This document shows positions 2,721 to 26,700 of a stretch of DNA of 64,000 nucleotides, piece by piece. Source of the stretch: Amphiscolops sp. MND2022. Its lineage: Eukaryota. Each line of letters opens with the position of its first letter. Position 1 is the first letter of the stretch. The notes beneath the pieces were generated by a model. The model worked only from the letters and a program-made list of their open reading frames with translations. It made no database searches and was not told where the DNA came from. The translations under genes and the position numbers were made by a program. Where the stretch lies: NCBI GenBank assembly GCA_964187785.1, contig OZ076409.1, forward strand, positions 48,982,001 to 49,046,000, given 5' to 3'.

Positions 2721-2921
2721 AAGTATTTGATTAACATGGCATTCAAGCTGCGTCGCGCTCTTTGAAATCTCCTATTGAATTTGTTCTTCCGTAATCATGG
2801 TTGATCAGGCCATTTAATTACTGATCAAATTCTCTGTTCCTGGATTCTTCGATTTCTTTCCTTCTTTCACCTTCTTCCATTCTTTTCAGATTGTTGCTTG
2901 CAATTCTCGTTCACATCCAAA

Positions 2922-5900
2922 ATGTCAGAGATTCATTCAGTTCATTCATTACCTGAGACCGAGACCACAGAAAGTAAGTGCACTATATTTCCTTTTCTTC
3001 ACAAACGGGTTTGGGACAATCAATTACTTAGGACGCACACTTGCTTTAGCTGACTCAGTCCACTCTGTCGGCATCGTGTCGGAACTCACGACACTGCAAA
3101 CTGTGCCACCCCAAGAAGCTCCTGTTGTCCAGCCGGTAGCCGCTGAGCCGCAGATTGACCCTGAGTTGCAGGTCGGTCAACCTGTCAATGTCCCGTATCT
3201 GCCGCAGTGTAAGTACTATCCTTCCATTCTTCAGTTCAGTCTTCGAATCCCTCATATCTCATCCTTACTTCGTCCATTAGCTGACTCCTTTTCGTACGGT
3301 GTTTCAGACCACTACCCTTGGTATGCCTCTCTTGGCAGCATCACCTTCGGGTGGTATGACCGCCACATGCGGGACATGCTGCGGGACAGCATCCAGCAAT
3401 TCAGTGAGTTTGTCAATTTACTTTTCATTCCTCTAGGCGATCGTCCGAACACTCCGATGTGATTCCGATGTAAACATCTCATCTGCATGTAGTGTCCTTT
3501 GCGGTCGATTACCCATGTAATTCATTTTTAAGATGAATTTAGGATGTGTCATGAACATTCACAGCTCTTCATGACTGACTCGCTGTAAATCCCATTTTTG
3601 AAGATGAGTTTTGGATGAAATCTTCTCCGGTCTTCTTTCTTCGCGCGGCGTACGCGCTCTTTCTTCTCCAATCGTCGTCGTCCAATAATTGTTTTCTTCT
3701 TTCAGGCCCAACGCCTATCCATGCCCCGAGACCGCGTCCCATCACCTATTCTATCGGGATCGGGACCAGTGACTTCGATGATGGCAGCGTTGACGTCAGC
3801 ACACAAGGAGGGCCTCCCCAACTCAATTTCTCCTCGTTCCTCAATGAACTGTCGTTAACTGGAGCGAGTTCTCCTGTCAGGCAGGCGCCAGTGTCTGTTC
3901 TGTCCCCTGTCTTGAGACGGTCCTTAACTGTTGCCAGTCTTCCTTCTGCTCGCCTTACTGTTGATGCAGGAGTCAATGCCATCGTCACTCCTGTTGATGT
4001 GGCAGTCGATGCCGTCGTCGCTGCCTCTGATCAAGCAGTTCAGGCCGTCGTGGAAGTCAGTGAGTCTTCCACTTCTTATGATCCTCCTGCTGAAATTGCT
4101 CCAGTTGCCGAATTGTTAGAGACTGTTCTTTGCGAGTCACCAAGTGCCAATGTTCGTCGTTTTTCCTTCAGCTTTGAGTCATCCGTGGAGCCACCTGAAG
4201 ACTTCACTGTGGATGGATCGTTGGCTGATGAACCTTCCTCTGAGTTGGCTGTCCCGGCACTAGACTCTGCCCCTGAAGAGACGTCTCCGATTGGTCCCAG
4301 TCTCGTCGACTCTGACGACGAGTTGATTGCAACCAGGCTGCCAGGTTACCTAAGCAACTTTAAAACATGTGAAGTATCTGATCAGTACCTGCATTCATTC
4401 ATCTTCCTTTTTTCATTTTTGCTAGCAATTCAGATTTTTCGTCTTTTTCATCTATTTTCCATCGTTTTAGTTCTTTTCGCTGTTCAGTTTTGCATGTTAT
4501 GTTTTTTCATCATTTTTTCATCGTTAAAAGTTTTCAAACATGGCGTTTTTCTCTTTTGTCTTGCATTCTAGCTATTTTAGCCACTTTTCATCTCTTTTAC
4601 ATCCTTAAAATTTTCCTTTTCGTTTTAGCTATTTTTCAGTGTTTTCTTTTCAGTTTACATCCCTTTTTCATCGTTAAGTTGTTTTCGCTCTAAAATATCT
4701 CAATTTTGGTTCAAAGTCGTTCTATACATCTCTTTTTCATCGTTCGAGTTTTCGTCTTTAAAAGTTTCGATTTTCATTCTGGTGGTCTGCAAACACATCT
4801 CTTTTTCATCTTTTCGTTTTTTCTTCGTTTTTCGCTTATATTTCCCGATGAAAATATTATTTTACATCATTTTTTCATCACTCCGGGTGACTTTTGGAAG
4901 TTTGTCGTGGTATTTTCATTTTTCAGTTTTGAAAGGATGATTTTTGTAGATTTGTTTTCTTTTTATTTCAGGAAGGAAAGTTCTCAAGTCAGCGTGGTTC
5001 GACCATGCTTATTGTGGATTGGCGTTAGGTTTTCCAAAAGATCACCTGACGCGTGATTCGTACGCGCGGTGCCTACTTTGCAAGCAGGATGTAAAGATCG
5101 GTAGCCGCGGCATAACGACGTTTCTTGAGCACTGCCGCGGAATGAGGCATCATCGTCTGGATTGCTTGGTGCGATTGCGACGTGGGCTCGCACTGCGGAA
5201 ACGGGATGGGACGCTCATGTCCGAAGCTGAGTGCGATGTATGTACGACGACGTTAGCTGGCGAAGCAGTGCCGGTAGTTGAGTCATGTCCCAATGTGACC
5301 GTGATCGAGGCTCTACAGATTGAGGCGACTGGCAGATCGGTGTGGGGCGACATATGCGCATCGAGCGACAGTGCGCAGGTTGAAAGTGTGAAGCTGTTTG
5401 TGTGCCTTGTCGTGGATGCTATATATCGCGACTGTGACTTCTCGAGTGTGCGTCATCTCTGGGACCTGATGGTGTCTTCGAATTTCCAGCATGCTGTTTT
5501 GTTTGGTTCGGCGTGTCGAGAGGCTGATGTACTGGTTATTATATTTTCATGTGTTGTATGTCATATGATATGTTTCATGTTTTGCGTGCACTAGTAATCA
5601 ACAATTAGGGCGTTTTTTTCTTTTATTTTTTGTTATTCTGGGTTGGGGGTGTATCTGAAAATGAGCTAAATGTCTTTTAAATGATTCCGATTTTTATGTT
5701 TAGAGTGTGGTCCTTTTGGGGTTGTGGCCCTATGTCATGCGGCGAGTACTGAGTCTGTGGACTGAGACCGAGTTCACTAGTTTTGGTGTATCTATTGTGG
5801 CGGACAGGGTGGTGGGCACCGTGAGCGTGTGTACTGTGGAGGGACTCGCAAGTTATGTGGTTCTATCTTTCAATTACTCGCAAGAATGGGAACAGCGTGT

Positions 5901-7591
5901 GGTCTCCTGGATGGTCAACTTGCTCTGTTGTGCTGTGGGGCAGGTCTCTCCTATTGGTGTCAACTGCAGTTTGTTACCCAGGCTAGAGCGTGCGCTGTTG
6001 AGGGGCTCTGGACTAGGAGCTGTTTCACTCATTCCTCTGCGGATCAGCGACCTGAATAAAGTTCTTGTTGACGCGAGTGTGCGCGTTATGGGCGGTGTTG
6101 ATGTGCATACACTGCTTAATCATTTGCAGACAAGGCTGAAAGACTTCGTGCATGATGCCGTTCTACTATCTTGTCCGAAACTATTGCAGGTGAATATGTG
6201 TTCTATATCAGTGTTTCTAATTGCATGTTTGTTTGTTGGAGATCGTGTGCTTTTAAGTTGGGCGAGTGGTGGATCTTGGTAAATTGTTATTATCCAGCTC
6301 GATGTTTTTCTAGGCTGTGCTGGAGGGAGAGGTCACTCTGTGGGATGTTCCCGACGTACTGACAGAGCTCCATACGAATTGGTTGGACATCGTTGTGCTA
6401 CTGAGGGTACCTGGTAATTCTGGTGTGCCTGACACTTTGGACATTGTGCTGTGTGGTGACCCTAGTGTGTCTCTTCGTCTTCATGCTTTGTCGCTGGTGT
6501 TTCGTGCTCGTATGTACAGTTTAATGTTTAGTAATCTATTTTGTAGGGGGGGCTGTTATATACACTTATCTATGAAGTTTGGTTTGATTGTCGTCGTTTG
6601 TAGCGGGGGGGGGCTATTGTATACACTTCTCAATGAAATTTTGTTTGATTTTAGTCGTTACTACCTTTCGTTGGAGCTTCAGTGGCTGCGAACTGAGGAC
6701 TGCACATTGGTCGTATGAAAGTTCATGCTTCGTGCACACTATTTTGTCCTATGTCGTTGAAGAGTCAGATCTCCCTGCCGTGTTGGATGTACGAGCTTGT
6801 TTGTGCATTGACCTCAATGGGCTAGTGGTTTCGGATGCCAAGTTAAATTCTCTTCGTGAGGAGTTTGCTGCCCATCTGGACTGTTTCGAGCGCCCTGACG
6901 TGTTTGAAGGGAATGTCATTCTAGTGAAAGACTTTCTGTTGTTGGTCGTGGAGGAGTTCTTGAGTGTACGAGGAGTGAAAGAAGAGGTAACTTTCCATCT
7001 GAGCGTTTGCTGTCCGGCCCTGCTATTGTCTTGTGATCCTGATGTTTTGTCAGCGGAAGTTGCACAGTTTACTGAGTTGCTAATGGAGCTGAGACGAGTC
7101 ACCGCTGTGGAGAAAAGGCGGATGGATAGAAGTTTCCCTGTATTCTTGGATAACTATCGGCGGATTGCTACTGGAGTGACTTCAGATAGTGCGAGTTCTG
7201 CTGTCGAAATTCTCCGAGCGTGTGATGGTGTGTCTGCGCAGCGGTTGTTCAGGTTTCTAATGTGCTTGAACGAGAGTCCACTTTTGCCGCTGAGAACACC
7301 TTGTGGTAGTGTGGGCCATTTACGGAGTGACATCACGACCAGCGTGTGTTCGAGTGTTTTCGAGTTTTCTCAAGGCTCATCGTATACGGAGATACGAGAG
7401 TGTCAGTGGACCTTTCTTGGAGGAAATCGCTGAATCATTTGGACGATTTACGACGCTGTCTGATGTAACGAACGGACGACATGCTATGGGACGACGTCGG
7501 TGTGGTGGCTGCCGAGGATTATCGCCAATCCCTGTACGAACTGCTGGGATTTACTGAAGAAGGAGAACGTGCTCCGAGTCCGGAGATTTGA
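2922..7591 (+). CDS. Antisense spliced accessory gene of element A: ~1050-aa zinc-finger protein, putative hAT-transposase derivative
   Basis: Predicted exons 2922-2973, 3050-3208, 3281-3403, 3706-4344, 4972-5534, 5704-6189, 6314-6509, 6655-7591, all with GT..AG introns and matching phases. Acidic S/P-rich N-terminus, then CLLC-x16-H-x5-H. As sequenced the frame stops at 7433; two +1 shifts (~7362, ~7471) are needed to reach the homologous C-terminus at 7591. Confidence 0.82.
4449..4879 (-). repeat. ~69-bp periodic array of CATC-N7-CATC in intron 4 of the antisense gene
   Basis: Motif starts at 4449, 4508, 4589, 4658, 4727, 4796, 4865. Confidence 0.9.
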
Positions 7592-10227
7592 GAATTCTAG
7601 TCTGTTGAACTTTTGATTGTGGATTATTTTATTTTATTTTTTCGTTTACTTGAAGTAGTGCTTTATATTACATTATAGTATAGTTTTAGTGGGTGTCCAA
7701 GTCAATGTGCCACTGCAAGTGGTGGGGGGGTAACTGCTGCGTCGGAAAAATCGGTGGCAGGTTGTATTTACAGAAGAATTATTTGGCGCCCGAATATTTT
7801 TTCTCTTGAGATACTAGTGATTAATTGTGCAGGTAGCGGTCGGTTAGGTTTACGGTAATGGAGTTCTTTTGTAGGTCGTAGTACTCAGCGTCTCTATTTT
7901 CCTTTGTCGTCTTTTTCGCATCGCTTATGTGTTCTTTTCTAACGTTGTTCATCCTTTAGGACATCGCGTGTATGTGTAGATATTTCAGTAATGCTTCGAT
8001 TTTGATTTCTCATCGTATTTTCATCACGTTTTCCTCGGTCGGCCGAGCGACGTCGCGAAAAGTGATTTTTCATCTTTTTTACATCGTTTGTTATATGCGA
8101 TTCATTGCATGTTTGTTACATGTGATTTTTCTACATAGTTCATCGTTTTTTCATCTTGCCTTTGAATTTTTGCATTTTTGCTGGTTTTTTGGTGTAATTC
8201 ATCGTTTTTGCATCGCAAGTTTGACTTGGCAAGTTTTTTGCTCATTTTGCTGTATAGTTCATCTTCTTTTCATCGTGGTTTTGAAATGTATGAATTTTTG
8301 CGTGTTTTCGATGTTATTTGGCTATAACGTAATCGGGGGTTGCATTTTTCATGTCTGGGGGAAATTTTTTATTAATATTGCGGTGTTTCGAAGTATTTTC
8401 TTCATGTATCTTAGCGTTATACGGTTATAACCGTTTGTCGTGTTTTGAATTTGCATGAATTTTGTGGTACATGTGTTTTGATCATCGTCGTCATGTTTCG
8501 AATTTGTCAACTACGGAACGTCATTGCATGTATTTTTATTTCGAGTTCTTGTGACCGCCGCTTGCGTGGCAGTCGAAGATAATTTCACTCAGCAGTGGTA
8601 CTGATAGCCTGTAGGCGTGCAAGGTACTAGTGGCTTCAGTCCAGAGCTGGGTGAGTGGAGCTGCTCCGCTCCTTTCAGATGAATGGAATCTCGTAGTTTC
8701 GGGCTATATATAGTCTATATGTCATTTTTTCGGTTGGTTGTTTGCCATTATTCGTCGAAATGGGTTTGTCCATTTGACGGTCGGTCCGATCAATCAATGT
8801 GATTGACATCTACGGTTATGCATGTGTCCAGTTTTAGACTATCTGTTTCTTGTATTTGCATGTATGGATTGTTACATGATGTGTTCTTTTAAATGGGTTG
8901 CCCCATTATTGACATGTCGTTATATGTTCGGTGTTAGTTTCATGTTTTTTAATTTGATATTTTTATTTTCGTTCATTTGGACAGGGCTTTGTCGTCACAA
9001 AGCCCCTACAAAACTAACTGAGAATCCACTAGCCGCTGGATAACCAACGCAGCAAGCTTCATCCGAAATTGGTTGTGAGCTCCCCGCCTCAACTAACCAG
9101 CACTCTTTTCAGAGAAATGCCAGCCAGCACGAAGGAATGTTTTTGGCTTATCGATAGGGGTGTTTTGCTTGTTATGAACTGATGTTTGCTGGGGGGTGCT
9201 CACTCCTTTGTTAGTTTTGTAGGTGTTTCGTCAGTTCTTATATTTTGCATGTAAGTTAGTAGTCTTCATGTATTTTCGATTGTTTGTTTCCTTTTTATTC
9301 GTCTAGGTTTGGATGGCTTTGGTGTGAATTGCATATATTATCTCATTCATTATTAAACGGTACATGTATATTTCCGTGCGTTGCTCATTTGTATTGCATG
9401 TAGTTTGGAATTGTTAATTTCTTTCGTGACGTCATTGAATTGGCAGGTCTTTGAACTTTACATGTATTGATCATTTCATTTTTGTGTCGCATAATTCTGT
9501 TTGCATGATTCGAAATAAAGTCGGTTGTTTTTTATCGTTTCGTGGAGTTACATGTTGTTTGAGAATTAGCTGATTCATTGTGATGTTATGTTGATGGTGT
9601 TTCCCATCACAAGGAGGTTTTGGTAAGTCATTTAATATTTTCGAATTTCCATTTAGACTAAATTCATCGTTTTGACATCCCCCAGCGAAGCTAGAGTATT
9701 GTGTCAGGTTAACGATAAATTCGGTCACGATGTGATGGTAGTGTCCATCACAAATTCATCTCGTTAATTGATTTCATGTAATTTATGAATAATTGGATCG
9801 AGTTCATCGCTATTTCATCCTCTAGCCGAGCTAGAGTCTTATGATAGCATGAACGTGAGTGCGTTCGCATTCTGATGGTATTTTCCATCTCAAATGCATC
9901 GCTAGTAAATATTGCATGTTGATTGGTCGAATTTTTGACTGAGTTCATCACTTTTTTGTCTCTCGTGTGTCTGAGGTAAATTTTCATGTGATTTCATCCT
10001 TTTTTCATCTCGAATTTTTATGTTCTGTTTTTTTCTGGTTTTTGGTCGTTTTTCATCCGTTTTACATCGTGTTTTGTTTGTATGCGTTTTTCATGTGATT
10101 TTTAGTAACTTTTCATCCATTTTACATCTTCATGTTCATTTTAAATTGAAATTGCATGTAATTGACTGGTTTTTGTGACTTTTTCATCCTTAACACATCG
10201 TGTGTTTGGAAATGTGGTTTTTCGTGG

Positions 10228-13200
10228 CTAATTCGTTACGTTTACTTTGTTGGTCTTTCTCAGAGAGTTTCTGGCTGTTGTAATCTCATGAATAAGGAAG
10301 TCAAGATATTTTTTCGGTGTAGGGTTTTCGCGTAACCTGTACCTACTTTGATTGTTTCTAGAAGGTCTAGAACTCATCCTTTCCTCATCTTCATTTTGCG
10401 TGTTTGTCTGTTGTGACTGATTTTCGTGTTGTTCGTCTCTCAGAGGTACTCTTATCCTACTTTCATCGCGGGGGGGCGGTAGAATAATTTCCTCCTGCGT
10501 CCCAAATCTAACTGTAGGTGGTCTAAAGTTGTTGTGGTCAGTTTCTACTTGCTGGTAATCTGTTCTCGTGGTTATTTCTGGTGGAATTACTTGTGGACTG
10601 TGTTGTTCTTGTACCTGCGGAATTATTTCTTCTGAAGGCTCTTCTTCGACTAAGTCTTGATCTAGATTGTCATTCTCATTCTGATCTACTTCGTCGGTCG
10701 TCGGAATATTCGAGTCGAAAATGTCCGTGTCTTCAACCCTTTCAGTGTCTGGGTAGAGATGTTTGGACACGTTGATGTCATCAATCGGAAATTCCGGTTT
10801 GAACAATCTCAGTCGCATGCGATGTACGCACTGAGTTTGGTGTGTGCCTACTTTGCGGATGATGTAGTTGCTATCGGATAGCACTTTCATCACCTTGTAC
10901 GGTCCTTTCCAGTGGAAAGTTTTAAACTCTTCTTTGCTTCTCTGAGAGTCGTACTTAGGATCTAGTAGGAACACAAATTCATTCACCTTCAGTGGCTGTG
11001 CTCGTGCTTTTCTATCATAGTACGTTTTGTACTTATGATAGGCGGAAATGATGTTATCTAGATTGTCTCTGAAGATGAAGTTCATTTTGTCTAGAATTTC
11101 GTTCACGTCCTTGCACTTTGTTTCAGCCGGTTTGTTTGCGTTTCGGAATTGCAGATCTAGTGGGTTGTATGGTGTTCTTCCGTGGAAAATTTCAGTTGGT
11201 GAACATCTCAGTGAATCATGATGCGTTGTGTTATGGGCCATGATTGCTATGTCGACATAGCGGTCCCATTGTGGTCTGTCTGCGTTTACACTAATTTTAA
11301 GGATCTTTTTCAGTTTCGCGTGCGTTCTCTCCACCATGCCTATTGTCTGCGCGTGCTTTATCGTGGCATGGGAGATGTGAATATCAGCCGCTTTCGCGAT
11401 TTCAGACAGAAGTTCAGCCGTAAACGCCGTGCCCTTGTCCGTCAGAATGTGCTTGGGCACATACGCGTGTTTCGTGAAGATCGACAGTAATCCTCTGACT
11501 ACGGAATGTGTATCAGGTCTCTTCAGCGGAACGGCGAACAGGTAGCGTGAAAAAACGTCAACAGCCGTCAGAATGTGTGTAAAACCGTTCGACGCCGGGA
11601 GTGGACCAACGATGTCTATTTCCAACAGGTCTTCTGGTCCGTCGCACGGGTCGTAGATTTTTTGTAACGGTGGACGTAGTTGCGTTTCTTTTACACTTTT
11701 AGACTTCATGCAGTTTTCACATCCGTCAGAGACTTTTTGAACTTTACAGGCTAAGTTAGGAGAGTAATATCTTTTACGAAGTTCATACAACATTTTCTTT
11801 AAACCAGGGTGTCCTTGTACCGGGCTGTTATGTAGAGTCCTAATTATTTTCAAAATACAGTCTTCAGGAACGACTAACTGCTTGTGAGACTCTAGTCCCG
11901 TGTGATCAAAAAACTGTCTGTACAAGACACCGTTTACAACTTGTAGGCGTTTTCGATTTTTGTACAACTTTTGAAAAAACTGATCTTGCATATTAACTGG
12001 GTGTTGCAAAATTTCAGTACCTTCTAAAAATCTAATCATTTTTTGGATAACCCAGTTATTTTTCTGGACCTGAATTAGATCGATCCCCTCGGCGGGGCTA
12101 ACCTGACTCATTACCGGGTGTGATAATGATACTTTACGGATGAATTGCGAGAGTTGAATCGGCTCGTCCACGTCTGTGAGGCGGTACGTCAGATGGTTGT
12201 CAGTCGCGAAGTCATCTGAGGCCGCTGTTCTCTCACAGTTGGTGAACTTCATCCCTTTCCCATCGTCATGAGCCACGTCAGTGCCAGTTGCCAATTTCAT
12301 CTCTTTGACATCCTTCTGGCGTTTGCATCTGAGTGGTTCGCTCGCGGGAAAGTAATCAGGCTCGTCTTCCTCCTGTTTTGGTGTACGGGAGGCGATGTCG
12401 ATCTCGATCCTGTGAATTGGAATAGTATCAGTCAATTTTAAATGTACACGGTCTTCAGGTCTAATCTCAAGCCGAGATAAGTAATCCGCTGCGGGATTTT
12501 CAACTCCTGTAACATGTGCTAATAGAAAATTGAACTGAAGGGTTTGATCGCAAAAATTCCAAAGTCAAGGCGGGATATGCTTCGCCTGGAAAAATCTAGT
12601 CAAGGCCTTATTGTCAGTCATAACAATGATGGGTTTTTTCGCACCCCACAAAATGTGGCCAAATTCATCGAAGGCAAAGTGCATAGCTAAAAACTCTTTG
12701 GCATACATTGTTAGAGACATCTGGCCGCCCTGAAATTTTTTAGAGCCAAATGCAACAGGGGCGTATGTGTGTTTGACTGACGGGTCAGCATAATCCTCAA
12801 TTAACAAAACATAGCCGGCAGCGTGTTCGCTGGCGTCACACATGATTACCAATTGTTTATCAGGTAATGGCAATTTCAGAGACACTTTTGTTGGTTTTAA
12901 CAAACTTTCATTGATTTCAAAAATAGCGTCTTTATGTTGTTGATTCAGTTTGAAAGGGACGTCCTTCTTGATCAATTCCTGTAAACAACAAGTTTTATCA
13001 GCTAGTCGGGGAATATAAGACCTGTAAAAGTTTACAAAACCAAGATAACGTTGCAACGCTTTCACTGAATTGGGGGGTTTCAACTTGGTTAGATAGTCAG
13101 TTACTCGTTTCTCAATGGGAGCAATACCGGTGCTAGAAATGGTTTTTCCCAAGTACTCAATTTGTTTTAGTCCAAATTCACATTTACTCATGCTAAGTTT

Positions 13201-15321
13201 GAGACCAGCTTTGTTCAACTGCTGAAAAACAAGTTCAAGGTTATTAATCAGTTCGTCAGGGGTGTGTGCTGCAATTCCAATGTCATCAACATATTGAGCA
13301 CATCGGTCCGCTTTGACCAAGGGGTCCAAATACTCACGGACTACACTTGTGAATGCTGACAAAGAACGGTTAAGACCTTGGGCTAGGCGTAAAAAGGCAA
13401 AAGTTCTAGAACCAAAATTAAATGATAACAGTTGGACAGACTGCTCATCGGCCATTGGAATGCAATGGTAGGCCTGGGAACAATCAAGTTTACAGAAATA
13501 CTTTTTCCCGGCCATGTGTTGGGCAGCGTCAGCAATTGTTGTTACGGGATGGTTGTGTTCACCGTAATCGTTTTTGATCAAGTGGTTTAATCTTCTCAAG
13601 TCAACTAAAATCCTCAATTTACCATTTGGTTTACGTTGGGCAAATATCGGAGATGAGTATTTGCTATGAGGCAAAGTAGTTATGATCCCGTACTCTTGCA
13701 TTAAAGCTAACTCCACGAGCAAATCGTCCTTCAAATTTGTCGGAGTCGGGAGACTTTGTGAATAAACAGGTTCTTCATGTTGAGGTGTTAACTTAACTTT
13801 AAAATCAGTGTTCATGCCAATATCAAAACGGTGTCTAGCAAAAATGGAGTTGTACTTTACCAGCAACTCCTCTACCTGTAACCGTTGAGACGGAGTAAGA
13901 AGCGAGTCGTCCCAGTTGAAGTTCTTCAGGAAGTTCATCCGTTGTTCATCGGATTGGGACGGGTCAAGCTTCTCGAGCTCTCGTAGTGCCAGAATCTCAT
14001 CATAGATTCGTCGCTCAATTGCGTTGAGTTTGTCTGGCTCACTGCACGTCTCGGGAGTTGGGTACCACTTAGTTGACTTCATTTCAGGGTTCACGAACAG
14101 TTGGTTGATCACTGCTTCCGCCTCATCTGGGTACTTGGTGATCAGGTTCAAGTGTTCGACTGGCATGGGTGTGATGTTTGCCGCTTGATGTGGTGTCGGT
14201 ATGCGAAAGTGTGCCAGAGTGGTGTTGGCATCAAGTGTGAACGTGTGGTTGTTCGGGTTGGTGACCTGGATTGTCGTCTTGCCCTCGTCTAGGTCAACCA
14301 AAGCTGGGGAAACAAGCAAACACGTCTTTCGCATGAATCCAGGTGAGCCCTCAACTGTACCAGTTGTGAGTGAGATGTCCGCGTCGCTGTGGACCTGTAT
14401 CATCTCTTGATGGAGAGGAGGGATCACTGTTCTGGTACTGGAACACAAATCAATTAAACCAGTTTTGAATCTGTTGTTCTTTTGCTGTCTAACTTGCATG
14501 GACATCATGTGATTAGGGAAGTGGACAAGGTGGTTTTTTATGTCTAAATTGACTGAGTACTTTTCAAAGAATGACATTCCAATTAAAATTGTGCCCATTG
14601 TTGGAAGGATTAGGAACGTTTCTTTAAAGACTTTTCCAGCAACGTAAAATCTAAGTAAGACTTGCTTACGTACTGGGACTAAGTTCCCGTTTGCTATTTG
14701 AATTTTGAAATTCGGAGGGGGGAGTTCTTGAAGGATGGCTTCTGGATGGGCCGTTGTTATTTTTCGCAATTCTGCTTCAGACATTGCACTTTGAATTGCG
14801 CCTGTATCTAAAAGTGCGCTGTTTTCATATTTGTCAAACTGAAGAGGGACGTAAAGCATTTTATCTTTCTTGTTTAAGTGTAAAGTGGGACTGAGAACGT
14901 GAATTTCTGTTTTAGTTGCATGTTTTTTAGCTTCTGAAACGTTAATACTACTCTGTTTTGCATGTTTTTTAATACTAAGCCGTTGGTCGATAGTTGAGTG
15001 TGAAGTTGAGTCGTCGTCTAGATGGTTGGTTTCCATCTCTTTGGAATCTTCCACCTGCCTCATGGTGTCTGGTTGCCAGTTCATCGTTTGTTCATCGTTG
15101 ATTTCAGCGAGTGGAGAAAAGCGGCTGCCGTTGAGTTGACGTGCATTTCCCATCGCTTTTTCATCGTTGGAAAGTCTTCGCTGATAGACGTCGTCAGCTT
15201 TTGGTCGTTTGTCCAGTGAAGGCTGCCATTTCTTCATTGGACGGTTGTGAGTCTGTTGTTGAGTCGTAAGTCGTTTGTCGCGCGTGTCGTTGGTAGCGGG
15301 CGGAAATCGTGGCGGAATCAA
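10228..15321 (-). pseudogene. pol: Pol of element A (protease, RT, RNase H, integrase) with one in-frame stop
   Basis: LLDTGA protease, LDCSQAY and YVDD RT motifs, CDAS RNase H, HHCC + D,D35E + GPY integrase. ORFs 12565..15321 and 10228..12435 share a frame and are split by a single TGA at 12565-12567 (KHIPP*LWNFCD). Confidence 0.93.
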
Positions 15322-16826
15322 AAACCCTGATTTATGTCTTCATCAGAGTAGCTTTCTTGGTCTTCTTCCTCGGCAACTGCTTGCATAGGATTCATCGGCT
15401 TTTGCTGTCGTTTTAAATCTTGTCGTCTAGCCTTGTTGTCGTCCTGTGAGTTCGTTGTGTATGGAATCTTTCCATATGCAGAGCTGCTTTCCTTGGGAAT
15501 GCGTCGTCTGCAGTCTCTTGCAGAGTGGCCGGTGTATCCACAAATCTGACAGACCAACTTCGGATTGTATTTCGGTTTGTCTGGGTCTGCTGCTTTCTTC
15601 ATCGGGATTGCATCTTCTTTCTTAATGCCGTTTGCTTCGTCACGTTGTCGGGCGCGACATTCCGTTTTGCGGTGACCTGTCTTTCCGCAGTAGAGGCATT
15701 GTCCCTCAAATCGTTTTCTTTCCGTGGGTTGCGTTGTCGTCGTTGTTGTTGTGGGCTTCGTCGTTGTAATCGTTGCTGGGGCTGAGGAGGTGACCGCGTT
15801 AAATGGTTGGATTGCCGTAGGTGGCGCGACGTACTGCTGGTACTGGTACTTTCTCATCAAGTATGTCTTGATTTCCTCTGGGGAGCTCTCTTCTTTGTTT
15901 GCCATGGTGAGCTCTTGTTGAATCTCGACTGGTAGTTTTCCAAACAAGAACATTTTGATTACTTTGTCGGCCTCATTGCCGAAGGCTTGTTTGGCAGTCT
16001 TCTTGAGATTTTTGAGGAAATCTCCGAATGTTTCTGTTGTGGGATCATAACGTGCTTGGTCCCACTTGTAACGGGCCACTTCCTTGAGATCCTCTTTTGC
16101 AAATTCTTTTCTGAAGAGGTCGAGTACGTCCTTTAGTGTTGTCATTGGCGTTATCTGGATGGATTGCCAGTATTCTATTGCGTCATCTCTCAAAAGGCTT
16201 TGAAAGAAGTGTAGTTTGTTCTCCTCGGTGATTTTGTTGGCAAGCGGGCTGAGGTGGTTGAGGAGAAGGTGTTCAAATTCGACGAATTTGTCTTTTTGGC
16301 CTCTGAAATTTGGCACGTGTGTCTGCAGAAGCTTCGTGTTGGTGGTGGTGTTTTTGATCCGTTGGGGGATCGTCTCGATTGCATTGAGTAGTCGTTCCTC
16401 ATTGCTTCGGGGGGTTGATTCTCCCTCTTCGTCTGAGTCGTCTTCTTGGTATCTTCTGAAGTTGGTGAAGCTGGTTGTCGGGCGGGTGGAGCGGGTTTCT
16501 GTAACTCCTGTCACCATGTCGAGCCCTACCGTGTGGGCCGGCTTTGAAGGACCTTTCGAAGTTGATGGCCGACTTTCACTCTCTGTCTTATTTATAACGG
16601 CCATCATTAAGTCCTTCAGTTGACTAAACTCATTTTGCAAGTCGTTTATTTTCCTTTCGTAACTTTCTCTTATTTCAGACAACTGAGAAGAGATGTCTGA
16701 AGTTTCGTTGCTATCAGAGTCATGGGCAGACGTCTGGGCCATGTCTGGATCAGTTGGAATAGATGTTTCAGACGAGGAACTAATAATTTTACCACTTCTG
16801 AGCTCAGTACCTTGTTCTGGATTCAT
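15318..16826 (-). CDS. gag: Gag of element A (502 aa)
   Basis: Retrotransposon gag-like core; two CCHC knuckles CLYCGKTGHRKTEC and CQICGYTGHSARDC; ends at slippery G GGT TTT. Confidence 0.93.
   Translation of the reverse strand: MNPEQGTELRSGKIISSSSETSIPTDPDMAQTSAHDSDSNETSDISSQLSEIRESYERKINDLQNEFSQLKDLMMAVINKTESESRPSTSKGPSKPAHTVGLDMVTGVTETRSTRPTTSFTNFRRYQEDDSDEEGESTPRSNEERLLNAIETIPQRIKNTTTNTKLLQTHVPNFRGQKDKFVEFEHLLLNHLSPLANKITEENKLHFFQSLLRDDAIEYWQSIQITPMTTLKDVLDLFRKEFAKEDLKEVARYKWDQARYDPTTETFGDFLKNLKKTAKQAFGNEADKVIKMFLFGKLPVEIQQELTMANKEESSPEEIKTYLMRKYQYQQYVAPPTAIQPFNAVTSSAPATITTTKPTTTTTTTQPTERKRFEGQCLYCGKTGHRKTECRARQRDEANGIKKEDAIPMKKAADPDKPKYNPKLVCQICGYTGHSARDCRRRIPKESSSAYGKIPYTTNSQDDNKARRQDLKRQQKPMNPMQAVAEEEDQESYSDEDINQGF
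15321..15327 (-). other. -1 ribosomal frameshift heptamer G GGU UUU (gag-pol, element A)
   Basis: XXXYYYZ heptamer in the gag frame just before the TGA; pol is open in the -1 frame from here. Confidence 0.75.
16505..16516 (-). other. Primer-binding site of element A (TGGTGACAGGAG)
   Basis: TGG immediately after the LTR-terminal ACA; the same 12-mer abuts the LTR in elements B and C; one mismatch from a tRNA-Leu-type PBS (TGGTGTCAGGAG). Confidence 0.85.
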
Positions 16827-18683
16827 ATAGACGAGGGAAAAGGATTATGAGTGAAGACTGGATTATCTGAGATGTTATTGCGATGTATTTTTGCTGTTCT
16901 ATTCGATTGTAATCTCTAATTCACTAAGTTTGAACAGAGATGTTTTAACGATGATTAGTATAAATAAGCAAGTCGTAAGGAAAGTAGTAGGAAATTAGCA
17001 AGGTGAATAGGAAAGTTCATCCAATTTTCATCGCAGTTGCAGATGTACCTGAGAAAGTAGTTAGCTTGCGATTTTGCAGTTTTCAGTGATGAAATAGAGA
17101 TGTATTTTCTGGGGAAATTCGACGTTGAGTATCCTACTGGATGGTAGCTAATCACAATTCGGTCTGAGTAATGTTTAATGGCGGTCCAATTTACAGCAGT
17201 TCACGTGTCTTTTCAGGCTGGTAAGACGCTAAATCTCTTACCAGCCACCTCTTATTGGCTATTGCCAGTTGGTGCTAATTGGTAAGTCACGTGACCGGTG
17301 TTGTGAACTGCCGCAAGTTGGCTGAACCACATGGTACATCTACATATGCTAATTATGATTAATCATCACTTTACAATGTCGCAATTACCTGCACGCAGCA
17401 TCATAGTTTCTATAGCAACCCAAATCATTCAAAAATGTACTAATTTCAAGTCAAACCAGAGTAAACTGTATCACAGGATGAGAAAACGATGTTTTCCAAC
17501 TAATTCTAGCACCAAAATCAATACTTCAAAACTAAAGATGGAAATGCGATGAATTTGTCAGAATATATGCTGATTTTCAAGTCTAGTTTAGCTCTGGATG
17601 AAAATGCGATGAATGGTGGTCTTTTCGCTCGAAAATCAACACTATATAAACTGACGATGATAAAAGGATGAACTCTCCATAAAATTTGCCAATTTCCAGC
17701 ACTGATTAAAATGACGATAAATTCAGGATGAATCCACTCAGAAAATGCTATTTCTAGCGCATGATCAGTTTTAGCGATGAGTTTAGGATGAACTCGTGAA
17801 TTAAAACAGCAACTATCGAAGCAATTCAAACTAGCGATGAGTTTAGAATGAACTCATCCACTAAAATGGTAATTTCTCAACACAAGGTGAAATCATGATG
17901 AATTAATGATGGATTTGCTAAACAAATCAGATAACCAGCGCAATCACTCTTTTTTAGGATGGGTTAAGGATGTACTTTCTCATTTCTCTTCTATGTTAGT
18001 ATGACGATGAATAAAGGATGTCTTACTGTCCTTAAGAAATGAGAAGCACTTTTGTGAGTTTCTACATGAAATATAACGATGAATTAGTGATGGAGTTTAA
18101 CTAAAATGAGTCCCGTAAAATCCGCTGATGGATTTATGATGAAAAGTAAAGTTTATTGTCCCATGCGTGGTTCATTCGCAATCTCGGAGATGGGATTGCG
18201 ATGAACTTTGTTAACAGCACCAGTAAATCCGCTGATGGATTTAAATGAAATCAAATCAGAATCATCACTAAATTAGACGATGAATTTGTGATGTATCTTT
18301 GATGAAATTTGTCACAACTACAAACTCTGAGGCGGGGAGCTAGTAGAAGTTATAACTTTCATCGTTTCTATATCTCGCGGTCCAGTCTGACCGGAAAACT
18401 TCTCTCCCTTGTCGTGACAAACCAATATTTAAGAAAAGTAGCATATCTAAGGCTAATGGCAAGATCATTTATGCGGACACCGGAACTAGAGCGCTCAGTA
18501 TTAAGTAGATATATATAACTCACACTCAAAGGGGGGAAGGGATTAAGGTACAAGTAACGTAGGGTTGCTCACAACCATGGCTCTTATTATATGACTTCAT
18601 ATTGCCCATATCTAAGTACATAAGACATAATATTTACATTACAGATATTTAGTAGATTATATTTCCATCATGCTGGCATGACA
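16517..18683 (-). repeat. 5' LTR of element A (2167 bp)
   Basis: TGTC...GACA inverted termini; inner edge fixed by the adjacent PBS, outer edge by loss of identity with the left copy. Confidence 0.92.
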
Positions 18684-19818: not shown

Positions 19819-21309
19819 TGTGATAATCCTCACCTAGGCTCTCTGCGTCAGACTCTTCGTCTGAGTGTATAGTTACATCTACATCGGACTCACTTCGAAA
19901 CAAAAGCTTTGCGGGATGTTTTAAGTCTCTCATTTTTGAAGCCTTGGGAGGAAAATCCTCGTTTTCAGAATCTGGATTCTCGATATTAGATGCGCGAACT
20001 CCTATAGACTCATCTATTCTAGATCCCGATTGCTGATTTTCTTGTATTTCATTTATGTCTGATCTTGGGTTTGTCGCTGTTGATGAGCTTTTTTAGTTTT
20101 TATTTCCCTTAGAATTGCTTCTAATTTGTTATCCATTTCTTCTCGCATCTTTTCAATTCTGTCATTGCTTTTTTGTTCCATTATTTGGGTCCAAACTTGT
20201 ATCTCATTGCTAATTTGGCTAGGTTCAACCAAGCTGTTCTCAGGGTTATTTTCGCCTAAATTACTTTGAATAACTGTATCATTATTAGTTAAAGTCACAT
20301 TACCTGATATTGGTGTCTCTGCCTGAGTTCTCTCCATTTCCCTTTCTGGGGATGGAGTTTCTAGCCTTCTAGATCGTCTATTTCTTTTGTTTTCCATCCT
20401 CTCTCAATTGAAAAATGAATTGCAGTTATTGGGGAAGAATTTGAATTGATCCTTTTATTTGGCAAAACCAAATTGGAAAGAGAAAATGATAGTAAAGATG
20501 AAAGTTTACAGAAGAGAATTGTAGATTTTGAAGCGACTGCATTTTAGTAGAATTGGAAAAGTTGTGTCTCACCAAATTATCCTAGCTGTCTATAACAATC
20601 ATGACATCCCTTTTTACGGGCATCACCCTCTGGGAAACACATAAATAGAATTACATCACAATAACATCAGTCTATTTATAGTACAAAGGCCCTGGAGGAA
20701 TGACAATCAAATACGAAATGATAATGTCTAAGAAACCCTAGAAAAAGTATGGAATTACTTAAGAATGGTATTTGCATGACTAATCAACATTAAGATTCAC
20801 TACATCATCAATTTGGAGAGCAACACTGCTAAAAACGCATGTTGACTAGTATACATTATGCATCGAAACGCATAATACCGCATATAAGCACTTATGCGGA
20901 AATGACGCATTTTGACGTATAAGCACTTTCACTCGAAACGTATGTTGACGCATGAACGTACTATCTTGAAATGTATGTTACCGCACAATGATCGAGACAT
21001 ATTATTTCCAAAACAGATTGTGAATCACATATTACATAAATCTCAACTTCATGACTCATCAACTTGATTAACGAACATGAAAAACTAAATCTCAATACAA
21101 TCTAAGATGTATTAAGTCATCTAAAAGAACAAAATCAACAGAACTAACAACTCTACCCGAAATAACCTATTTACATGACATCAATAAAACAGATGAAAAA
21201 CAAACATAACATGTCATAAACTCAGTTGTGAAACTTCAAGTTACTTTCAGTCCTCATTCACCTTTTCAGCGCTGCACTCCGGCTCCCATGCAGGTACTTG
21301 GCTGCAACA
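19819..21309 (-). repeat. 3' LTR of element B
   Basis: Copy of 34076..35567; includes a frameshifted duplicate of the gag 5' end (ORF 20053..20397). Confidence 0.95.
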
Positions 21310-22669
21310 GTCCCGCATTTTTAAAGGTGAAAAGGGCTGCTTCAAAACCATCTATGAAGGCGCGGGAACGTACATTTCGATCACGTACTGTCTCGGCTTT
21401 GTAGGCTGTTGCAAGAAGGTTTTCGCCTAATATCTCAAGGGCTATCTGATCATAAGTTTTACCGCACCAATCGCAGAACCCTGCAATATTAGGCATGACT
21501 GTTGGTGATAATCGGTAAACATTTCTTTCTTCCGCTGGTAGAAATAATATATTTGTACTGTGTGTCGCCTGTACTATGAAGGCTTGTTGTATAAATGGAG
21601 GCACTGGTGGGTCGTTATGAACCGCCACAAAGTTAGGTATGACAGATGGAATTTGTATCATCAGTGGTACTGGGTTTGTTAGTTGATTTGGGTTTGTGAG
21701 GTGTGAGTTAGCAGCTGCACCAGGAGGCCTGTTATGTAGATAATCGTTCACATTATTGTGATCAGCTGTTTGAACTTCCGAGATATTGTCTCCCAGGTCG
21801 GTAAAGTTACTTATATCAGCACTAAAGCCTGGTGGGTAGTTAGGTCGTGGTCTTCGTGGTAATCCTCTGCCTCTGCCCCGTTCTCTCGGGGTAGGAAGAA
21901 TCGCCGCTGATGGCCTGCCGTAGCTGTTTAGTGGGGGTTGTTGAACCATTTCCTGGTCATCCGGAGATTCAGGTGATTCTTCAAATTCCGAACTCACGAA
22001 TGAAGATGGTGTCATTGAATGATTGCTCTGATGTTCATCAATTAGGTCAAGCAATTGTCTTTCTATTTGTGATCCGGCAGTATCTATTATTTCTGTGTCT
22101 AATTGCGACGCCGTTGACTGGGGGAAAAGAGTCATGGCGGGTGCCCCGGCGAATGCAGTCATCGCGTTTGATCCTGGAGCGCCCACTCGGAACCTTTCCT
22201 CAATTGCATTCACATTCCCGGGTTCAACAGTGAACTCATCTCCACTCTCACTAGAGATATCTATTACAGAGGGCGATGATCCAAAGGTGTCCATCAGATC
22301 GTCCAGTCTGAATTGTAGTCTGTCCATTCTCACTTCGATGTCGGGTTTGTGATGAAAGTAACTTATGTCTAGGATGGTAGTTCTATTGAGAATTATTCAG
22401 TGAAGTTTTATGTGAACAACTGGTTTTGACTCGGTTATAGACCATATGGTGATTAGTTTATGATTTCCTGGTGAAAAATAAGGAAAACCCGCGGAAAAAA
22501 TGAGTGTCATGTCAACAATATTCCACGATCCCCTTATAAGGGTTTCCTTTGCTATGAAGCAATGGGTTCCGCCATCATCAAGGTGTAAACAAGTCCTTTT
22601 AAGGTGATTCTTCAGGGTTTTCCCGCTAACAGCACCTTCTTTATTCTCTTCACGGCATTTCGTTGTCAT
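21266..22669 (-). pseudogene. Sense ORF3 of element B (467 codons, one internal TGA at 22397-22399)
   Basis: ORFs 22397..22669 and 21266..22333 are in one frame with an open linker (IILNRTTILDISYFHHKPDIE); ends 44 nt inside the 3' LTR; contains VIDISSESGDE and FCDWCG. Confidence 0.7.
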
Positions 22670-23122
22670 TTTAAATGATAAGTAAACAAATCTATTATGA
22701 CTTCAAGAAAAATTCAACGAATGACTCAGGAACTTGTCAATGAAAATTCTCAATCAATTTTACATGTAACTAAATTTCATGAGTAAAAACAATGGAAATA
22801 CAAAATGGTATAAAAGGAACGTTTATTAAAGTTTTCACCATTTTTAATGTGTTATCCTCTTCATAGTTTTGTTTAAACACAGTTCCGCATTTAAAAAGGT
22901 ATTAGGGTCTGATCATGAAACGTATATTTAAAACAGATGTGTTCCCTTTGAATGAAATGTGACGTCAAAAAGGTTTCATCAAAATCAGTTCAGTTTAATC
23001 ATCACATAGTGACGTAACTTTTGTGTATTAACGCATAATAGTATGCTATAATACGTTGTTCGTGCTTTTAACATCATCTGTCAATACTGCATCTATCTCC
23101 TGCTGCATATGTAGCGAGAAAA

Positions 23123-23245
23123 CGTAGGTTGCCGCATGCTCGTACTCACTCGATCCGTATGTTGACGAGTATGCGTCTTCACTTGATCCGTATGTTGACG
23201 AGTATGCGTCTTCACTCGATCTGCATGTTGCCGCATATCCGTCTT
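23123..23245 (+). repeat. 33-nt tandem repeat between ORF3 and the antisense gene of B
   Basis: Units like TCGATCCGTATGTTGACGAGTATGCGTCTTCAC with period 33. Confidence 0.85.
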
Positions 23246-23723
23246 CGCTTGATATGCAAATTATCGTATATTTGTCATAACGCTGCATGTAATTCATTGT
23301 GTATTTGCTTTCCAAAATCTCTCTCGCTTTCACTGTGTAATTACCATTGTTTGCGCATATGTCACTCAGATTATCTCACGTTAATTAATCATACCAAACA
23401 CTCTGGCAGTAGTGAATGGCATTTAATTGACCAATCAGCGGTCAGTACAAACTATACCGCTTTCCAAAACCAGATTTCATTTTGCTCTTTTGCCTTTAAT
23501 TGTTACGCCACGCCTTTCGTTTTAATTGAAAACGTTGAAGTTCTGTCCACTGTTAATTCTAAAAGTTGCTGTCTATTTAGTTTCAGTTTTCATTGTTTAG
23601 TAATCTCTGTATCCCTTAATTCAACTCCTCTCAGCAAATTGAAGTGTACTTCTTGTGTTGTTATCATCATTAAAATTGTTTTCCTCCCCTGTCGATCATC
23701 AATCAAATTATCCCTTCTTGCAA

Positions 23724-26700
23724 TTGGATTCATTCGTTTTGGACTCTCCCAAACGCCGGAAAACAAGGAAGGATCAGCCCTCTCGTCGGGAACGTGCTTC
23801 TTGGTGCTACAAGAGTCCGTCGAGTACTACTCCTGGTTAGTTCAACTCAATTTGTTTCAGATTTTCAATTTTGAATTAAGGTTCGGTGAATTTTGAATGA
23901 TAGTTAGTTGGCCAGACTAATATCAGAGTTGATCAGATTTTAATCTTGATCAGATTTGAGGAATTTTTTGAACGCTTCCGTTCTTAGTTTCGAACGACTT
24001 CCGTTTTCATTTCCTGTTTCCGTATCCAAAAACTAGTGATTATCAAACGGGTTCCGTCCTTTTGACCCATTTATTTTCTAAAACGGATCATTTGTTTTAG
24101 TCGAACTTGGATCGACTCAAACGTCTCCTGGTCGCTCACCGACGAAAATTTATCATCCTCTTCAAGTTGTTTCCCCTGACGACCAGCAACAGACTGACTG
24201 TCCTGAGACACCAGATCTTGCTCAGTTACAGATTGATGAGACAAAGAAATCCCCTGTCATTGAAGTACGCGAAATTACTGCACAAGGGACAGAAGTCACC
24301 TTGCCTGCGTTGAATCAACCTCCTTTCTCTGCTAGTTGTTCGGTACGTCAAATCGTTAATTCTGAAGCGACTGATATGGATCTCACTCCTACTCTTTTTA
24401 ATCAAGACGCTGTTACTGAGGAGATTGTCCCATCTTCTTCTCAGATCCCCTCTCCTCAATTCTCCCAGTTCCTAGCTTATTCTCGGAACCAGACGCTAGA
24501 TCCACCCTCGCCTCGAGTCGTAGGCTTAGATGCTCCTGATCAAAGGCAGATGTGTACTCCACTTAGTGAGAATCTAGAGAACTCCAACGGTGATACCCAT
24601 GCCAATACTGAACCTTGTGGACTCAGTGTCACACGACAAGAAGTCATGTTATAATCCAACATGCTCGGTAGAATTCCCCGGAGTTTCCTAGCTGGTGGAG
24701 ATGAACAAGCAACGTCTCTTCCTTTCAGCATCGTCGAGAGTCCTTCTAATTTTGGTACGGCATTACCTTTAACCTCTAGCCAGGATGAAAGGAACGCACA
24801 ATCGTCGCCTGGAAATTCTACACAGGATCCTCAGAATCCTGATCAGTCAACTTTGCGGAAAAGGCAACGACCGAGATACTCTCTAAAAACTCATATGTTC
24901 CACAAACATCCGGTTTTAAAATTCTCTGCTACTGGACCAATTGATCCAGAGAAAACACCATACAAGTGGTGGTGCCGGGTTTGTCGGTCCGAACTGTCTC
25001 TAATGAGCAGGGGAACACTTGAGCTGATGGCACACTACCGTTGTGATAGTCATTACATCAAGGAACATCGTATGAGGATGGAAATCCCAGGAATGGCCCT
25101 ATTTGACAAGAATGAACGAGAGTTACAGGGTATGGCTTTGATTGAAGCTAAGAAGGTTGCAAAAAACACTTATCCCATTGCTCCTCAATTGGATAGCTTA
25201 CGACCTTACGGTGGGCATGTGGACAGTTTGACAGGAATTTACGACGGGATTTCTCGTCTATCCAGGAACAATCAGCTGCCTGTTCAAAACTTGGATCAAC
25301 ACCGCATTTATGTAAGTCTCGTGTTTAAGTTTTCAGTTCTGCATATTTCTCTTATAAGGGGTAATTGTTGTTCTGATTGAAGTGGGGTGGAAATAATTTG
25401 CTGAGTTTTAACAAGTTTGATTTTGAAATTTTTTCACACTAATCATTGTTTCTATCTGTTCACAGGGAGTCCTGATACACATGTTTCGGGAGCTTATTGA
25501 CTATTCTGTGACAGCTTGCGCTTCCTCCGGGATTTATTCACTATCTCTTGAAAAATTTCCCACCAATGATCTCGCCATCGTTTCCTTTTGGAGTGGTAAT
25601 GTCCTACACAGAATTTGTCTTGGAACAGGACCACGCGGGCTACTAATCCCAAAGAAAATCCTTGGTTTGGTGGCATCGTTCATTACTCTTTTTGAGAGCC
25701 CCCCGAACTGTGTGTGTCTTGTCGGAATGGGGGACAAACTTAACCAATGCCTCACTTCAACCCTACCAGGAACCAAGCGTCCTAATTTGGCTCACTCGTT
25801 TGGTCCGAACGATTTCGAGAAATGTCTTGCCGGCCCCACAGTAAACATCATCGAGCGCCACGACTTCCGGTCCATACTTGATTTCCTCTTGATGAAGCTG
25901 GGGACAGCACTTGACCGAGACTGGCTACAGTCCCTCCCTCTTCTTCATAAGGTTTTCATCTTCTTCTATTTCATTGTAATTATACATTCATAGATAATGA
26001 TTGCTTCGCTTTATCTTTTAGTGCGTCTTGAGTCTCCAGTATTCTCTCAGCGAAGCATCAGGACTTATTGAGTGTCTTTCCTCCAACTGGAACAAGATAC
26101 GTGATCATTTAGCCCAAGTCTCTAGACTACCGAAGTACCGCTTCCATATGCGAGAGGTTAATTTGAATATCATTTTTAGTGATATACAACTCATCTGCAT
26201 CGTTTCCATTGTTTTGAGTGTTGTTTTAGCCAAGCACCCTCGACGAATGCTTCAGGCTCGACACAGCATATCTTGCAAGATTGTTTATCATCCGGTGTGC
26301 TATTGATCACTGTTAGTATGTTGTTTTGCTGATTGATTTTTTTTACTCCATACATTTACGATTTTCTCAATGCGCACGAATTTTCCACCATATTTTGTCT
26401 AATTTGGGTCAGAAATGATCGTTTTTCAATAATACCAATTTTTAATCCGCCGTGCACTCCTGCTCTGATCATTGGAGAATACTATTTGACTGTTTCCATT
26501 AGCCGTGTTCTTTATTTTAGCTACGTGTAGCCTCCATGACTTTTATGCGAACAATCTCTCCTTTTCCGCATAGTGACGTATATGCGAGTTGTCTCGATCC
26601 GCATGATAACGTATATGCGTATCACCTCGATCCGCGCAATAACGCATGAACGGATTACCTCGATCCGCATAACAACGTATATGCGTTTTATCTCAAACTG

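Follow-up and report, generated by a model that had tools for sequence, protein, structure and literature searches.

We describe a gene, predicted to be spliced, that lies antisense within element A, a Ty3/Gypsy long terminal repeat (LTR) retrotransposon of Amphiscolops sp. MND2022. The window, meaning the whole stretch of DNA that was analysed, comprises 64,000 nt of contig OZ076409.1 (48,982,001-49,046,000) from an assembly of 1.07 Gb, and element A occupies its minus strand. The assembly contains Wnt genes, which marks the host as an animal. The gene (2922-7591, plus strand) sits between pol (10228-15339, minus strand) and the 3' LTR, which ends at 1746. Its placement inside an LTR retrotransposon by a first-pass annotation was confirmed by the presence of an LTR pair, a TTGAT duplication, gag, and the protease, reverse transcriptase (RT), RNase H and integrase domains. 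The LTRs (-419 to 1746 and 16517 to 18683, minus strand) differ by 7 mismatches and 1 gap in 2,167 nt (99.6% identical), end in TGT...ACA and are accompanied by a 5-nt target duplication, TTGAT, which follows the 5' LTR. The 3' LTR (2,166 nt) starts 420 nt to the left of the window, fills positions 1-1746 within it, and has a U3 part rich in GATGAA/TTCATC. Abutting the 5' LTR is a primer-binding-site-like sequence (16499-16516, minus strand), the first 12 nt of which are common to element B, a second Gypsy element in the window. Pfam matches to gag and then to protease, RT, RNase H and integrase follow in that order on the minus strand. The gag frame, with zinc knuckles (15318-16844, minus strand), starts inside the 5' LTR, and pol has a stop at 12565-12567 in the window copy. 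A dUTPase-like stretch (~14210-14450, minus strand; Pfam E 0.056) lies between protease and RT. A non-coding spacer with TTCATC arrays (7592-10227) runs from the antisense gene to the end of pol. Family A is young and abundant, with 150 of 150 scored RT matches at least 97% identical and copies spread across all 13 large contigs.

The antisense gene has eight coding exons, all on the plus strand. Exon 1 (2922-2973) opens with an ATG at 2922, exon 2 (3050-3208) is Pro/Val/Glu-rich, and exon 3 (3281-3403) contains a short conserved aromatic block, its acceptor lying 3 nt upstream, in frame, in most diverged copies. Exon 4 (3706-4344) is acidic, Ser/Pro-rich and of low complexity, and its length changes among close copies are mostly multiples of 3. 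Exon 5 (4972-5534) encodes a BED-like C-x2-C-x16-H-x5-H finger followed by a helical region. Exon 6 (5704-6189) is predicted to form a three-stranded sheet with helices, which probably opens an RNase H-like core that lacks its first catalytic Asp. Exon 7 (6314-6509) is followed by exon 8 (6655-7591), a helical domain that is the most variable part of the protein and ends in a conserved acidic tail. The seven phase-compatible introns of the first-pass annotation hold up: all seven junctions are GT/AG, exons 1-7 are stop-free in the phases needed, and the phase fit alone would be expected in about 1 of 2,200 random sets of seven introns. The introns measure 72-627 nt at 30-42% GC, and exons 2-8 have 49-58% GC. 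Intron 3 (3404-3705) carries conserved CATC/GATG motifs and intron 4 (4345-4971) a dense TTCATC array. The product of ~1000-1050 residues predicted earlier stands for the family (~1,050 residues) but not for the window copy, in which exon 8 is broken by frameshifts private to that copy (found in 0 of 39 close copies) and the frame stops at 7431-7433. Exon 8 runs to a TGA at 7589-7591 in 34 of the 39 close copies.

Upstream of the ATG lies an extra conserved 3' splice site (2802-2889, plus strand), made up of an inverted repeat with a CTGAT branch-like site, a pyrimidine tract and CAG. The CAG ending at 2889 (3' splice site at 2888-2889) is present in the window and in 16 of 17 other aligned copies, and its distances to the ATG among copies are not multiples of three. 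Since the acceptor is conserved and that distance is not a multiple of three, the extra exon would be non-coding or the transcript trans-spliced; a ninth, non-coding exon or a trans-splice site is thus probably located here. The short inverted repeat, at 2802-2827, is near-invariant and overlaps the branch-like site.

Conservation of splice sites and frame among copies had been named beforehand as a test of the gene model, and both proved conserved in 39 close and 20 diverged copies. Every intron has a GT donor in 38 or 39 of the 39 close copies, and acceptors are AG in 36-39, except at intron 2, where the acceptor is at the same place in 33 and is found in all 39 if an AG 3 nt upstream is accepted. 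All eight exons are in frame and stop-free under the window's junctions in 25 of 39 close copies, whose exon length changes are multiples of three; three of these 25 have a damaged donor or start codon. Among the diverged copies, 18-20 have GT donors and 18-20 have AG acceptors (19 at intron 2 with the 3-nt slide), 18 retain the ATG, and all have a TGA or TAG stop. At every one of these 20 loci the exons are in order with integrase on the opposite strand.

The ratio of replacement to silent divergence (dN/dS), the other test proposed, is far below 1, at 0.09-0.16 in 20 of 20 pairs of the window copy with a diverged copy and 0.05-0.24 exon by exon. Underlying these ratios are a dN of 0.14-0.29 and a dS of 0.9-3.1, the latter rough because silent sites are near saturation. 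Exon 8 identity at codon positions 1, 2 and 3 is 66, 80 and 42%, respectively. The other five frames of exons 5-8 contain 13-39 stops per copy, with dN/dS of 1.1-2.7 in four of them and 0.26 in the reverse frame that shares third positions. Substitutions were also counted among 37 close copies, leaving out three with truncated or rearranged ends. Changes shared among copies comprised 53 silent and 26 replacement (expected silent:replacement ratio 1:3.1), and private changes comprised 82 silent, 120 replacement and 3 stops. Shared changes are mostly silent and private ones closer to neutral, a pattern to be expected if selection acts during transposition and copies decay after insertion. Judged by these sequence comparisons, the antisense gene is a real gene under purifying selection. 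It also fits the earlier suggestion that such introns survive retrotransposition, since they would not be removed when antisense to the genomic RNA: every copy retrieved that covers the gene retains its introns, and none of the 150 exon-5 matches ranked highest looks intron-free, the longest open frame there being 392 residues.

The first-pass annotation treated the gene as unusual cargo of one element. Capture as a one-off is rejected, as 19 of 20 copies chosen by RT score alone (rows 2-21 of the RT matches) carry the gene antisense at the expected distance, and it is a fixed accessory gene of several families (A, B, C and D). By comparison of its copies, it is a regular part of this Ty3/Gypsy lineage, with homologues sharing intron positions in three more families. 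Element B (19819-35567), a young Gypsy element with LTRs of 1,491 nt that are 99.6% identical, contains a homologous antisense spliced gene (24082-27911, plus strand), in which a finger exon ending at 25311 is followed by exons 25466-25951, 26022-26156, 26230-26311 and 26794-27911. The pol of element B is 48% identical to that of A, and the two antisense genes are collinear. Introns 5, 6 and 7 have the same place and phase in both, exon 6 is 486 nt in both, and the B gene has one more intron; of 20 copies, 19-20 have GT and 18-20 have AG at its four junctions. Direct BLASTP between A and B exons gave weak matches (E 0.005 and 0.13), and so the case for homology is made by profiles through family C and by the shared introns. 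With hhalign, matched A and B exon pairs gave E values of 0.038, 0.10, 0.006 and 0.001, and mismatched pairs 0.19-0.48. Twelve loci chosen with two distant finger proteins yielded two more families, C at 5 loci and D at 2, whose integrases share 37-61% and 61-73% identity, respectively, with that of A; integrase was on the opposite strand in 11 of the 12. In hhalign comparisons family C bridges A and B, its exon 6 matching A with E 6e-7 and its exon 5 matching B with E 1e-8, and its introns 5 and 6 are in the same places as in A.

Protein database searches returned 45 matches for exon 6 and 71 for exon 8, which look like proteins of the same or close species. Two distant exon-5 matches are only 37-48% and 27-34% identical to their counterparts in this genome; because they are so poorly matched here, other organisms probably carry relatives of the gene. 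Transposable element annotation overlooks spliced antisense genes of such elements, and gene counts may include them as host genes by mistake.

Several further observations concern these families. The 82-nt exon of B (26230-26311) is almost invariant in 20 copies, the other exons being 40-70% identical, and is a candidate functional surface. The window copy of the B gene has an in-frame stop at 24652-24654 and is without ~96 nt found in other copies. A tandem duplication of 3' exons of the family-B antisense gene occurs at two loci, L125 (G000:C6:9969300-9979299) and C3:32523739-32531354. Intron 5 contains no stop and keeps the frame in some family-C copies, so that open frames of 450 residues arise (L133:5716-7065, minus strand) that could be mistaken for intron loss. 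Element B also contains an open reading frame of 376 residues (21266-22396, minus strand), in the sense of gag-pol and adjoining the 3' LTR, that has no Pfam match; 19 of 20 B loci have it, with identities of 34-98%, and element A is without one.

The first-pass reading of the protein's N-terminal part was borne out: exons 1-4 are acidic, Ser/Pro-rich and without lysine, and the CX2CX16HX5H finger was found at 5070-5150. The exon-5 match to zf-BED is below the Pfam cut-off (E 0.07; 13.6 bits against 20.6). In PDB sequence searches with four alignments nothing fell under E 0.35, the value at which the exon-5 alignment matched ZBED2. In a single comparison via the protein P0071, the finger matched that of a divergent hAT group with E 3e-7 (best reversed control 0.014). 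This group comprises several families in this genome (L170, L172-L177), is absent among the best PF05699 matches, and provides the nearest candidate relatives of a donor. When exon profiles were compared with members of the group from this genome, exon 5 scored 31 against the hAT finger (best of 15 controls 16). Exon 6 scored 30 against the hAT helix plus first catalytic strand (control 20), and the two matches are collinear. The column under the first catalytic Asp is variable among copies (V, R, H, E, Q, D or others), and a conserved DDE core is not seen at that column.

Pfam comparisons, in which E values up to 1-3 were considered, took in exons 4, 5, 6 and 8 of A, three B exons and 11 exon frames from families C and D; no match was found there to the C-terminal dimerisation domain PF05699, to TRP28 (PF04195), or to the VANC domains DUF1985 and DUF287. 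B's last exon lies near hAT dimerisation clusters in the Atlas (24 of 30 matches, 0.91). Inverted repeats of at least 40 nt were not found around the gene, shorter ones not having been searched for. The best fold matches of an AlphaFold model of exon 6 (Z up to 5.2) are three-strand-plus-helix folds, many of them RNase H-like, a likeness of arrangement only. AlphaFold models exon 8 as a helical domain, confident for residues 20-200, which has no clear match in the PDB (Foldseek, VIA; best Z 5.3, to helical hairpins) and none among viral structures. A search of the genome for DUF4371, run without a positive control, found nothing. We regard an origin from a hAT transposase as likely on this evidence, and given that origin, catalysis has very probably been lost. 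If the origin is true, one class of mobile element would have recruited the enzyme of another.

The gene is highly diverse on an otherwise constant element. For the same element pairs, silent differences per site are 0.04-0.35 in integrase and 0.43-0.84 in the antisense exons, and in the set picked by RT, with RT 99% identical, exon 8 has 30-99% protein identity to the window. Usable exon 8 sequences from 42 of 46 loci form 16 clusters at 88% identity, one of which is probably an artefact of a frameshift; identity from one cluster to another is 28-80%. In 23 of 28 allele pairs, identity at four-fold sites is 0.28-0.39, close to the random expectation of 0.26-0.28. As four-fold identity does not fall below random, there is no support for the idea that silent sites are driven below it, as in RNA-level escape. 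Among 15 alleles, the finger is conserved best (0.87-0.89, compared with 0.48-0.75 in exon 8a). The 5' half, the 3' half and integrase give discordant trees, and identity in some close copies is 86-88% across exons 1-3 but 95-98% across exons 5-8. This indicates that gene halves are exchanged between elements, presumably through template switching. A near-constant RT beside a deeply polymorphic accessory gene marks a likely site of an arms race, with the host or between elements.

The TTCATC/GATGAA motif, counted on both strands, occurs 17 times in the LTR, 12 times in the introns and 20 times in the spacer, against 1.0-1.3 in shuffles. It occurs once in 3,155 exon bases, and its count elsewhere in the window is at background (24 against 19). 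Conservation in introns 3 and 4 is 95% and 87% for motif bases and 75% and 69% for other bases, and introns 5-7, without the motif, are 41-49% conserved; introns 3-4 are thus better conserved than silent sites because motif bases are kept. GATGAA is the top hexamer in 4 of 4 family-A groups, despite their different alleles. Family D has ACGATG/CGATGG, with ACGATG on top, and the top hexamer is CGCATA or ATGCGG in 5 of 5 groups of family B. The central residues of the finger are near-constant within a family and differ between families. A Gypsy element without the gene offered one decayed LTR for comparison, with a motif z of 4.0 against 8.4 for A.

We hypothesize that the antisense protein, derived from a disarmed hAT transposase, uses its BED-like finger to bind its own family's arrays in integrated copies and thereby keeps the element transcribed against host silencing, and we put the probability of this at roughly 0.45. 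A hAT gene would have entered an ancestral Ty3/Gypsy element antisense to its genomic RNA and would be transcribed from a promoter in or beside the 3' LTR. Finger and motif would co-evolve to give each family a private address, and the acidic N-terminal third together with the helical body may recruit or block host chromatin factors. Template switching would swap gene halves between elements, and selection for rare versions would maintain many alleles while leaving the finger near-fixed. A stronger form is doubtful. In it, the protein would be a self-addressing anti-silencing factor whose finger reads a family-private array and whose dead transposase body exists as at least a dozen ancient alleles, as little as 30% identical, which recombination moves among near-identical gag-pol backgrounds; this would amount to a balanced, immune-evasion-like polymorphism within one transposon family. 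The finding bears on how animal retrotransposons resist silencing and on what the antisense extra genes of LTR elements do. As the protein, the predicted motif, a natural A-versus-B swap control and the allele set are all named, binding and function are directly testable.

A number of results weigh against the proposal that the protein keeps its element active. The similarity to hAT transposases is collinear but weak: none of the exon 7 and exon 8 profiles rose above controls against the divergent hAT group, and the exon 6-8 profiles had no match to the Ac-type hATs of this genome. The AlphaFold model of exon 6, three strands and a helix, has a low pLDDT of 46, an Atlas query with exon 6 found nothing, and the Atlas placement of B's last exon came with a low recognition value. 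Family C shows weak motif enrichment, and the motif z of the B LTR (3.2) is below that of ordinary host stretches (3.9-4.4). The arrays could serve host factors, and because finger and motif share ancestry, the four families are not independent tests of co-evolution. CpG is not depleted in the region (observed/expected 0.8-0.95), which makes an effect on DNA methylation like that of VANC unlikely; the target would be another silencing layer. The genome has 5 matches to methyltransferase-family genes. Finally, the present sequence data cannot separate activation from repression.

One alternative is repression: the same protein on the same motifs would be a repressor encoded by the element itself, one that keeps copy number down or shuts out related elements. 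All of the binding-related evidence (arrays, motif covariation, finger constancy) fits this equally, and dead transposase derivatives can act as repressors, as does the P-element KP. Antisense retroviral genes such as HBZ are regulators as well (PMC7264820, PMC11963269). We nonetheless consider a repressor unlikely, as the family is young and abundant by its RT matches, the N-terminal third, being acidic and without lysine, resembles an activation region, and a repressor gives no plain reason for a deeply diverse body with a fixed finger. It is likewise unlikely that the protein acts on complementary DNA (cDNA), binding the LTR arrays, as a hAT transposase does with subterminal repeats, to aid end pairing, nuclear entry or the choice of integration site. 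Such a role is the ancestral task of BED domains (PMC10368747), and the arrays are dense in both LTRs; however, they are equally dense in introns 3-4 and in the internal spacer, away from the ends, and integrase is intact and strongly conserved with copies on all large contigs.

The absence of a significant Pfam, PDB or fold match in exons 6-8 would suit a protein that is not transposase-derived, such as an RNA-binding or anti-piRNA accessory factor, with the arrays being host enhancer sites. C2H2-like fingers can bind RNA, which also favors this account. It is improbable all the same, given two collinear hAT profile matches above controls and a motif that covaries with the finger family. Allele diversity could instead reflect allele-specific self-recognition, in which each version works only with itself, either as rival exclusion or as a poison-antidote driver. 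The 16 exon-8 clusters, down to 28-35% identical to one another on RT that is 99% identical in the RT-picked set, and the near-random four-fold sites speak for this. Gene halves recombine freely, though, contrary to what a tight two-part system would lead one to expect, neither a second product nor a toxic domain was seen, and many alleles occur in one genome, which makes self-recognition improbable too. That the gene is a passenger, be it a functionless relic of a nested DNA transposon or host gene or an antisense RNA with an incidental frame, is hardly credible. Its private changes are closer to neutral and the window copy is broken, but such private damage is normal for any gene after insertion, and the pol of the window copy is broken too. 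This reading is refuted by the selection tests: dN/dS is near 0.1 with silent sites saturated, splice sites are conserved and the stop is kept as TGA or TAG. The gene is also present in nearly all RT-picked copies and in four families.

Other features of the window were noted. The gag frame starts within the 5' LTR, upstream of the primer-binding-like site, in both A (16517-16844) and B (34076-34661), and no typical purine-rich tract is seen on the genomic strand just inside the 3' LTR of either (1747-1765 in A, 21310-21330 in B). A third Gypsy-related element (41506-46870, plus strand) is decayed and internally short, with repeats 87% identical. Three elements resemble foldback elements or miniature inverted-repeat transposable elements (53797-54486, 56876-57638 and 47721-48972); two have inverted arrays of 15-nt and 16-nt units and one has 190-nt inverted arms.

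The arrangement of an antisense extra gene between pol and the 3' LTR is already known in plant and fungal elements. Antisense open reading frames in this position have been described in plant Gypsy elements and in fungal Boty (PMC7264820, PMC11963269, PMC8365987, PMC8220671), which bears out the first-pass remark that they are known in Retand-type elements (PMC7264820, PMC11963269). The gene of element A resembles plant Grande gene23, RIRE2 and Retand TRP28 in position, orientation and presence in most copies, and also in a probable nuclear DNA-binding product and family-specific repeats in the same region (PMC7264820, PMC11963269). The plant frames differ in being confined to plants and in having TRP28 or SMC-like domains and no BED finger; the word 'intron' is absent from the main text of both papers, and no allele system appears in the parts examined (PMC7264820, PMC11963269). 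In fungal Boty (BcGypsy1), the brtn gene likewise runs antisense in the interval from pol to the 3' LTR (as cited in PMC8365987, PMC7264820). Unlike brtn, the gene described here occurs in an animal and encodes ~1,050 residues with a BED-like finger and a body of likely hAT origin. In the work of Zhao and colleagues from 2011, brtn is reportedly spliced.

What is new in comparison with the literature searched is the animal host, the size, the likely transposase origin, the motif covariation and the allele system. A search combining LTR retrotransposon, BED zinc finger, hAT transposase and antisense gave no match, and no such gene was found in an animal element, nor its size, likely transposase origin, motif covariation or allele system; subscription journals, Repbase reports and supplements were outside the search. 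HBZ of human T-cell leukemia virus type 1 (HTLV-1) is likewise an antisense regulatory gene driven from the 3' LTR (PMC7264820, PMC11963269). It differs in being a small bZIP protein of a retrovirus, without homology to the present gene. HBZ of HTLV-1 is spliced. The LTR elements of bdelloid rotifers are likewise animal Gypsy-like elements with captured non-envelope genes shared between types of mobile element (PMC5408684). Their extra ORF3s differ in encoding a DEDDy exonuclease, a GDSL esterase or an env-like protein, and the words 'intron' and 'transposase' are absent from the main text of that paper (PMC5408684). An Ectocarpus DNA transposon has an accessory gene on the opposite strand (PMC12477816), and the available text of PMC13524379 has nothing on antisense genes.

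By analogy, the closest working model would be VANC (PMC5735166, PMC13547354). VANC proteins bind family-specific motifs in the introns and ends of their own VANDAL transposon and de-silence it (PMC5735166). The present gene is like VANC in being an intron-containing accessory gene that evolves faster than the core enzyme (PMC5735166), and in having family-specific short motifs crowded in introns, spacers and ends, strongly in A, B and D and weakly in C. It is unlike VANC in that VANDALs are DNA transposons and VANC has DUF1985/DUF287 and removes DNA methylation (PMC5735166). The motifs are moreover dispersed here, the likeness is one of arrangement, without homology shown, and anti-silencing is a proposal in the present case. 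The closest biochemistry would be that of BED domains, which bind short subterminal repeats (PMC10368747). Unlike in hAT transposases, the first catalytic Asp is not conserved, a long acidic N-terminal extension is present, the gene lives inside an LTR element, and no terminal inverted repeats were seen around it in a search covering 40 nt or more. As in the hAT transposase Hermes, a BED-like CCHH finger is followed by a helical region, a sheet like the start of the catalytic core and a helical C-terminal part, and short repeated motifs occur in the encoding element (PMC10368747).

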